From Eledone cirrhosa (taxonomy: Eukaryota): 64,000 nt of DNA. A program made the position numbers and the translations under genes. The stretch is taken from contig OZ024750.1 of the NCBI GenBank assembly GCA_964016885.1, forward strand, positions 15,128,001 through 15,192,000. Direction: 5' to 3'. The notes under the pieces were generated by a model, which saw nothing but the letters and a program-made list of their open reading frames with translations, made no database searches and was not told the DNA's origin. Below are positions 36,101-36,243 of the stretch, in pieces (the stretch's first letter is position 1; each line of letters begins with the position of its first letter).

Positions 36101-36243
36101 ATATATAAACAAGAAAGACGGTTTAGATTTTGTCTGAAGAGAACACGTAGGGCAGGTGTTATACAACTGCCTTACGTCTTTGAAATACGTATAACAAAAT
36201 ATAAAGGGATGTACGAACGAAACCGTCTTTCTTGTTTATATAT
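36101..36243 (+). mobile_element. Family F mini-element with ~24 bp terminal inverted repeats in (TA)n
   Basis: tataaacaagaaagacggttt ... aaaccgtctttcttgtttata. Confidence 0.8.
36127..36200 (+). ncRNA. Type I hammerhead ribozyme (family F)
   Basis: Stem I ATTTTGT/ACAAAAT, CTGAAGA, stem II ACGTAGGGCAG/CTGCCTTACGT, GAAA, palindromic ATACGTAT, predicted cleavage after 36193. Confidence 0.88.

Follow-up and report, generated by a model that had tools for sequence, protein, structure and literature searches.

The stretch of DNA analysed here (the window) comprises 64,000 nucleotides of the Eledone cirrhosa genome (contig OZ024750.1, positions 15,128,001 to 15,192,000) and is AT-rich (GC 0.16-0.41), with many microsatellites and short repeats. 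Neither its open frames nor Pfam searches revealed a recognisable gene in the window. A weak match to the NDK7 N-terminal PH domain at 62305-62484 on the plus strand (E 0.00037) is far below the cut-off, and no homologues of this segment were found. Two open-frame fragments (6286-6636 and 47234-47620), presumably resembling the C-terminal end of RTE-type LINEs, have no Pfam match, and the LINE-like region at 5830-6791 is in an inverted arrangement.

The feature under study is a type I hammerhead motif on the plus strand at 36127-36200, here called F, which was delimited by sequence, descriptor scans, shuffles and folds. Its stem I pairs AUUUUGU (36127-36133) with ACAAAAU (36194-36200) through seven Watson-Crick pairs, followed by the core CUGAAGA (36134-36140), the stem II span (36141-36181), GAAA (36182-36185) and the perfect palindrome AUACGUAU (36185-36192) as stem III. 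From its base, stem II consists of G-U, A-U, A-U, a C.C mismatch and an 11-bp helix (36145-36155/36167-36177, one G-U). H17 is A36193, and cleavage is predicted 3' of it, in the triplet AUA. The order CUGANGA, GAAA and UH, the three helices and the ends lying in helix I agree with the definition of the type I hammerhead, and F is a genuine hammerhead sequence with an intact core. The sequence and the descriptor scans match the layout put forward in the first-pass annotation (7-bp stem I, CUGAAGA, stem II, GAAA, palindrome, cut after 36193).

A strict descriptor has three matches in the window, namely F and two copies of a second family, A, compared with a mean of 0.05 per shuffle in 60 dinucleotide shuffles, and none of these 60 shuffles produced a match as good as F, which argues that the motif does not arise by chance. 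There are five complete hammerhead cores in the window versus 0.05 per shuffle (40 shuffles). The description of F as "textbook" is nevertheless overstated. The Rfam scan of the window gave no family at gathering score, a G-U pair replaces the usual G10.1-C11.1, the cut triplet is AUA, and stem III can form only two pairs in a monomer. The Rfam hammerhead families have the same catalytic core consensus as F, yet none of them is among the 12 matches at E<=10 in 35900-36500. Pattern scans of metagenome contigs for the F motif returned 0 and 0 matches; two viral-contig matches and one prokaryote-genome match were rejected as chance, since stems I and II are missing in all three.

The element GAAAC-C-GTC is present at 36219-36227, exactly where it had been reported, but its proposed role as the 3' half of a second hammerhead is not borne out: there is no CUGANGA or stem II upstream, the best core-like 7-mer there has three mismatches, and GAAAC-C-GTC is not present at the aligned place in family A. 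GAAACNGTH occurs seven times in the window versus 4.05 times expected by chance. A core look-alike at 36278-36315 was dismissed as well, because the letters at 36280 and 36299 are different in the majority of other copies.

Family A (3030-3446), a related hammerhead family, comprises two outward-facing copies in a 327-bp palindrome with a one-sided tail, in a TA tract. The core context, stem I, the G-U base pair, the C.C mismatch and the AUA site are as in F, which bears out the earlier remark that the two share an architecture, the C.C mismatch included, despite differing sequence. The F-A hammerhead alignment was bettered by none of 1000 shuffles, whereas the 3' ends of F and A show no significant similarity, an equally good alignment arising in 363 of 1000 shuffles. 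In a core-anchored comparison, limited to these two families, 7 pairs are changed on both sides over 16 positions of stems I and II while the C.C mismatch is kept, and beyond this mismatch the helices are unrelated in sequence. The hammerhead identity and the kinship of F and A are thus supported. The AUA cut site, the G-U base pair and the C.C mismatch that they have in common are mildly unusual.

Besides F, the window contains numerous elements embedded in TA tracts, family A among them, that have a tail on one side and an inverted arm whose length varies; many of these carry a GAAA-palindrome-H half or a full core. Apart from A, they are found at 7055, 22370, 25546 and 28977 (family B), 7282 and 58154 (family C), 35504-35959 (family D), 57675-58088 and 63145-63545. 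The inverted arms of the families neighbouring F measure about 30 to 200 bp. A small hammerhead with a 3-bp stem II and a palindromic AGUACU lies on the plus strand in a 376-bp palindrome within a TA tract (57713-58088, core at 57937). It has the layout of the Hydra-clade table of PMC8557442, with stem II flanked on either side by an extra U and with a palindromic stem III; stem II is changed in its minus-strand mirror copy. A candidate third AUA-site hammerhead on the minus strand (63787-63686) has CUGAUGA followed by a stem II region of 85 nt, GAAA and a palindrome of 10 nt; its stem I is imperfect, and it failed the core scan. A minimal hammerhead of the type found in Penelope-like elements (PLEs), also on the minus strand (24726-24699), has a 4-nt palindromic stem III and an additional A ahead of stem II; a TA run lies 92 nt away. 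Family C (4029-, 7420-, 7550+, 51804-, 58363+) carries the half GAAACCGGUA after a 4-bp hairpin and UUGAAAA, which may be the U3-A8 core variant described from PLEs of Schistosoma; stem I has only 3 bp. In family B (7055, 22370, 25546, 28977, 48777, 54951) and at 63145-63397, several copies have their inversion points just upstream of the GAAA half. As these points fall within the would-be stem II, the core is lost in these copies, and hairpins at the inversion points may favour truncation or fold-back.

F itself is flanked by a perfect inverted repeat of 37 bp (36088-36124/36220-36256). Of each arm, 17 bp are a TA run, equal in length on both sides, and the repeat overshoots the TA runs by 3 bp. 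The 24-bp terminal repeats in which F had been boxed are therefore too short, their boundary at 36101 falling arbitrarily inside the TA run. The left arm (36088-36124, minus strand) consists of 3 nt, the 17-nt TA run and 17 nt of the element end (36108-36124), while the right arm (36220-36256, plus strand) is the element's own 3' sequence with a 17-nt TA run. No second copy of the arm was found elsewhere in the window within one mismatch. A loose end at 36054 that resembles the left arm was attributed to a divergent copy of the repeat on the left flank.

Four public runs were placed on 35994-36900 (907 bases) at 80% likeness. Two of them, X1 and X3, come from one sample and are perhaps not independent of the window, since their unique flank shows no differences over 592 and 638 letters. 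The stretch was matched by 383 (X1) and 389 (X3) contigs. The summed contig depth over 36149-36210 is 2662-4665 versus 4.3-6.6 on the unique flank, that is, about 600-740 times the flank over the hammerhead, a rough sign of hundreds of copies, depth being no copy number. The search for further copies called for in the first-pass annotation thus met a large repeat family. The window copy departs from most other copies at 36156, 36202, 36204 and 36215 and is only a few per cent from the family majority. None of the 40 read variants shown, of 79, falls in the core or the palindrome, and one X4 read group has a damaged hammerhead core. Variants at 36147, 36175 and 36176 look compensatory; they were not counted as covariation because they are CpG transitions and unphased.

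The contigs also bear on the arms, if only indirectly, because both arms were masked in this comparison (36081-36121, 36223-36262) and joints there dropped. Among the 16 pieces listed of 795, the hammerhead is covered by 12, which come from about 9 distinct contigs and are 82-91% alike. Every one of them starts at 36127 or 36128 and none extends to the left mask edge at 36122, whereas on the right 11 continue as far as the mask edge at 36222; in 4 of the approximately 9 distinct contigs listed, 89-272 other letters stand upstream. This asymmetry suggests that the left arm is likely no shared terminal repeat: the right arm appears to belong to the body of the family, and the left arm to be particular to the window copy. 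Since the pieces are 82-91% alike, some of this asymmetry might instead reflect alignments clipped at a mismatch near 36126. The listed pieces thus give no support to the notion that F is a unit enclosed by terminal inverted repeats. With the depth over 36149-36210 and the reach of the listed pieces to 36222, the body of F can be placed at 36121-36237 on the plus strand. This body, which continues into the TA run, is the 3' end of an element present in many copies, likely a pseudo-LTR segment of a PLE truncated at its 5' side; the left arm is likely another 5'-truncated copy, very short and inverted. The inversion junction between the two likely lies at 36121-36124, with GTTT as a possible 4-nt microhomology. 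One other copy, represented by three reads with an X4 loose end at 36136, has GTTT and similar stem I letters with different upstream sequence.

Downstream of the right arm, 36257-36364 (plus strand) looks like a separate repeat; its depth (514/589 at 36280 in X1/X3) resembles that at 36215 (478/677), and its other copies continue into a TA run after 36360. It is a candidate for a one-sided PLE tail of F, the link across the TA run being masked; such a tail is proven for the neighbours of F and not for F, and according to PMC8557442 it is an optional feature. The equal 17-nt TA runs and the 3-bp overshoot raise the possibility that the TA run is internal to the element and that 36257-36364 is its tail, for and against which we see about equal reason; in that case the true element could measure about 280 bp. 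Another repeat fragment, at 35994-36087 on the minus strand, ends at a (TA)17 tract (35960-35993), and its depth falls from 1540 at 36014 to 195 at 36064; it is a weaker candidate for a tail, or an independent insertion. In all, 35460-36364 contains at least four different repeat pieces split by short TA runs, and these pieces nest (a family B end, the D palindrome at 35504-35959, 35994-36087, F and 36257-36364). The region is a hotspot of TA-targeted insertion.

Together, these data make it quite probable that F is the 5'-truncated 3' end of a PLE, inserted in a TA tract and joined head-to-head to an even shorter copy. PLE insertions are heavily 5'-truncated and often have an inverted truncated copy at the 5' end and a tail at one end; their hammerhead lies close to the 3' end, and the Neptune, Hydra and Naiad clades target (TA)n (Craig et al., PMC8557442). 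The cut site of F is 44 nt before the TA run, so that the hammerhead with its palindromic stem III sits near the 3' end, as in PLEs; the insertion is in (TA)n, as in the three clades; and what is likely an inverted 5'-truncated copy lies at the 5' end of F, the arms of other copies being masked. No RT or GIY-YIG Pfam family was detected at E<=0.05 among the 150 longest of the 213 open frames of the window. With no RT or endonuclease frame linked to F, its PLE membership is something we can only infer; the absence of an RT plus GIY-YIG frame is expected for a truncated copy.

The insertion may be pictured as follows. The PLE endonuclease would nick both strands of an AT-rich TA target, and each nick would prime reverse transcription from the 3' end of the element RNA. 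One cDNA would extend about 117 nt, through the hammerhead, while the second would stop some 17 nt past the TA run; the two would then be joined head-to-head, perhaps via GTTT at 36121-36124, a step that would also have removed the sequence upstream of stem I. If two cDNAs were joined head-to-head, the "terminal inverted repeats" would be the 3' end of the element copied twice. An intact parent element would use its hammerhead, dimerised through the palindromic stem III, to cut the tandem precursor RNA. A purified PLE protein does nick and extend both strands of AT-rich DNA, from two internal start sites that define the tail, and the hammerhead in that study cut only with the protein and was dispensable for insertion in vitro (Frangieh et al., PMC11167929). 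Against the PLE reading, two independent cDNAs do not explain the equal 17-nt TA runs and the 3-bp overshoot, unless the run is internal.

The closest known systems are the hammerheads of metazoan PLE pseudo-LTRs, described as mostly single motifs from truncated PLEs or close opposite-strand pairs, with a long helix II and a palindromic helix III, built for function as dimers (Cervera and de la Pena, PMC4209133). F resembles them in its type I layout, its long helix II, its small palindromic helix III that needs a dimer, and its occurrence as dispersed single motifs from truncated copies and close opposite-strand pairs. It differs from the hammerheads of that study in helix I (7 bp versus 4-5), in helix II, which is far longer (14 bp plus) and contains a C.C mismatch, in having G-U in place of the G10.1-C11.1 described there as highly conserved, and in its AUA triplet. 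With the C-terminal-endonuclease PLEs of the Hydra and Neptune type, F has in common the (TA)n insertion, the inverted 5'-truncated copy and the 3'-end hammerhead (PMC8557442). According to the same source, a Hydra-clade family is known from Octopus bimaculoides, Hydra-1_Obim, whose core is also CUGAAGA followed by G. The clade is characterised by the RT and EN motifs DKT, RWK and CxCX5C, without CCHH. The Hydra-1_Obim motif occurs in the window at chance level only. All 26 Hydra-clade rows of the PMC8557442 table have a GUH cut and a short stem II, in contrast to AUA and a long stem II in F, and AUA is found in none of the 34 PLE hammerhead rows compared. The F motifs are missing from the two supplements searched (PMC8557442, PMC13282606). 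We found no description of family F in the literature; Repbase, Dfam and the O. vulgaris repeat library, which lay outside the comparison, may already catalogue it. Further related sources are PMC6962438 and PMC6765202.

With regard to activity, the predicted cost of the active monomer fold relative to the ensemble is 8.8 kcal/mol in genomic context, where stem I has a pairing probability of 0.00, and 5.7-5.9 kcal/mol without the arms. For stem III of the monomer, the probability is 0.00-0.01. The RNA with arms folds into a 37-bp closing stem and a junction hairpin (36123-36137) that holds the CUGA core. The double-hammerhead dimer reaches -49.3 kcal/mol versus -33.4 kcal/mol for two monomers, and is thus about 16 kcal/mol more stable. 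The predicted cost of a dimer-ready fold in context is 5.3 kcal/mol for F, the lowest of the five complete cores, versus 7.9-9.4 kcal/mol for the minimal core at 24726 and 46-92 kcal/mol for cores buried in long palindromes. By this measure, the earlier ranking of F as the best candidate for an active ribozyme in the window is fair in relative terms, whereas the lone monomer is predicted to be inactive. Because stem III cannot form alone and the junction hairpin ties up CUGA, the folding models predict that a lone F copy is a passenger that cleaves little and needs a partner in trans. This agrees with the absence of cleavage for a single Schistosoma motif and the low cleavage of dimers in PMC4209133. 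Dimer cleavage is also the subject of Lunse et al., as cited in PMC6765202.

Three other explanations have to be weighed. F could derive, as a solo or truncated unit, from a non-LTR retrozyme, a tandem hammerhead repeat that is expressed as circular RNA and is itself a non-autonomous PLE derivative. Like F, non-LTR retrozymes are non-coding, multicopy and PLE-related, with a type I hammerhead (PMC7229834; bioRxiv 10.64898/2026.07.22.740005); the low GC of F would also fit, retrozymes exist in molluscs and as monomers (PMC7229834), and they are stated to derive from PLE pLTRs (bioRxiv 10.64898/2026.07.22.740005). However, they are defined by tandem repeats and circular RNA, whereas F is single and inverted. 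There is no tandem array at the locus, no 3'-to-5' return joint is among those listed (joints at repeats were dropped), and inversion and TA targeting fit PLE insertions, which makes this explanation unlikely. A MITE-like, non-autonomous mini-element with fixed terminal inverted repeats and a captured hammerhead, moving into TA tracts as a 140-170-bp unit, would account for the perfect 37-bp inverted repeat, the equal TA runs, the unproven tail and the many copies, and MITEs are among the recently active octopus repeats (PMC13282606). Such a unit should have the same terminal repeats and a fixed length throughout, but the segment 36122-36126 is common to none of the 12 listed pieces, which do not extend left of 36127 (arms masked), and 4 of the 9 distinct ones have 89-272 other letters upstream. 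The X4 read group with different upstream sequence, the lack of another arm copy in the window within one mismatch and the arms of about 30 to 200 bp in neighbouring families, without fixed TIRs, speak against it as well, and we regard it as quite improbable.

F might also be an active monomeric ribozyme retained by the host to cut a host transcript at this locus. Every core base is intact, and F, as part of the loop that separates the arms, escapes the burial in double-stranded RNA that affects family A and 57713-58088. On the other hand, the monomer is predicted hardly to form stem III, AUA is called a slow triplet in PMC3138052, and no host gene could be placed around F. The intact core requires no selection, because this copy differs from the family majority by just a few per cent. 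We therefore consider host retention extremely improbable. The PLE reading thus remains the one that we prefer. A more far-reaching idea would unite F, A and the 63787 candidate in a hammerhead subtype not described before (AUA site, long stem II with conserved C.C), whose dispersed copies could pair by their 8-nt palindromes and cut in trans within host transcripts. We give this little credence. If true, the hundreds of single F-type copies would be scattered, concentration-dependent RNA break points in the host genome.

PLEs make up 6.83% of the genome of Octopus vulgaris, in 190 families (PMC13282606 supplement). As a PLE remnant, F would be one more PLE-type hammerhead of a kind reported by the thousands in animal genomes, in this instance a young, core-intact copy missed by Rfam. 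It would offer a natural test of dimer cleavage by hammerheads with an AUA site and a long stem II, and of the origin of head-to-head PLE junctions.
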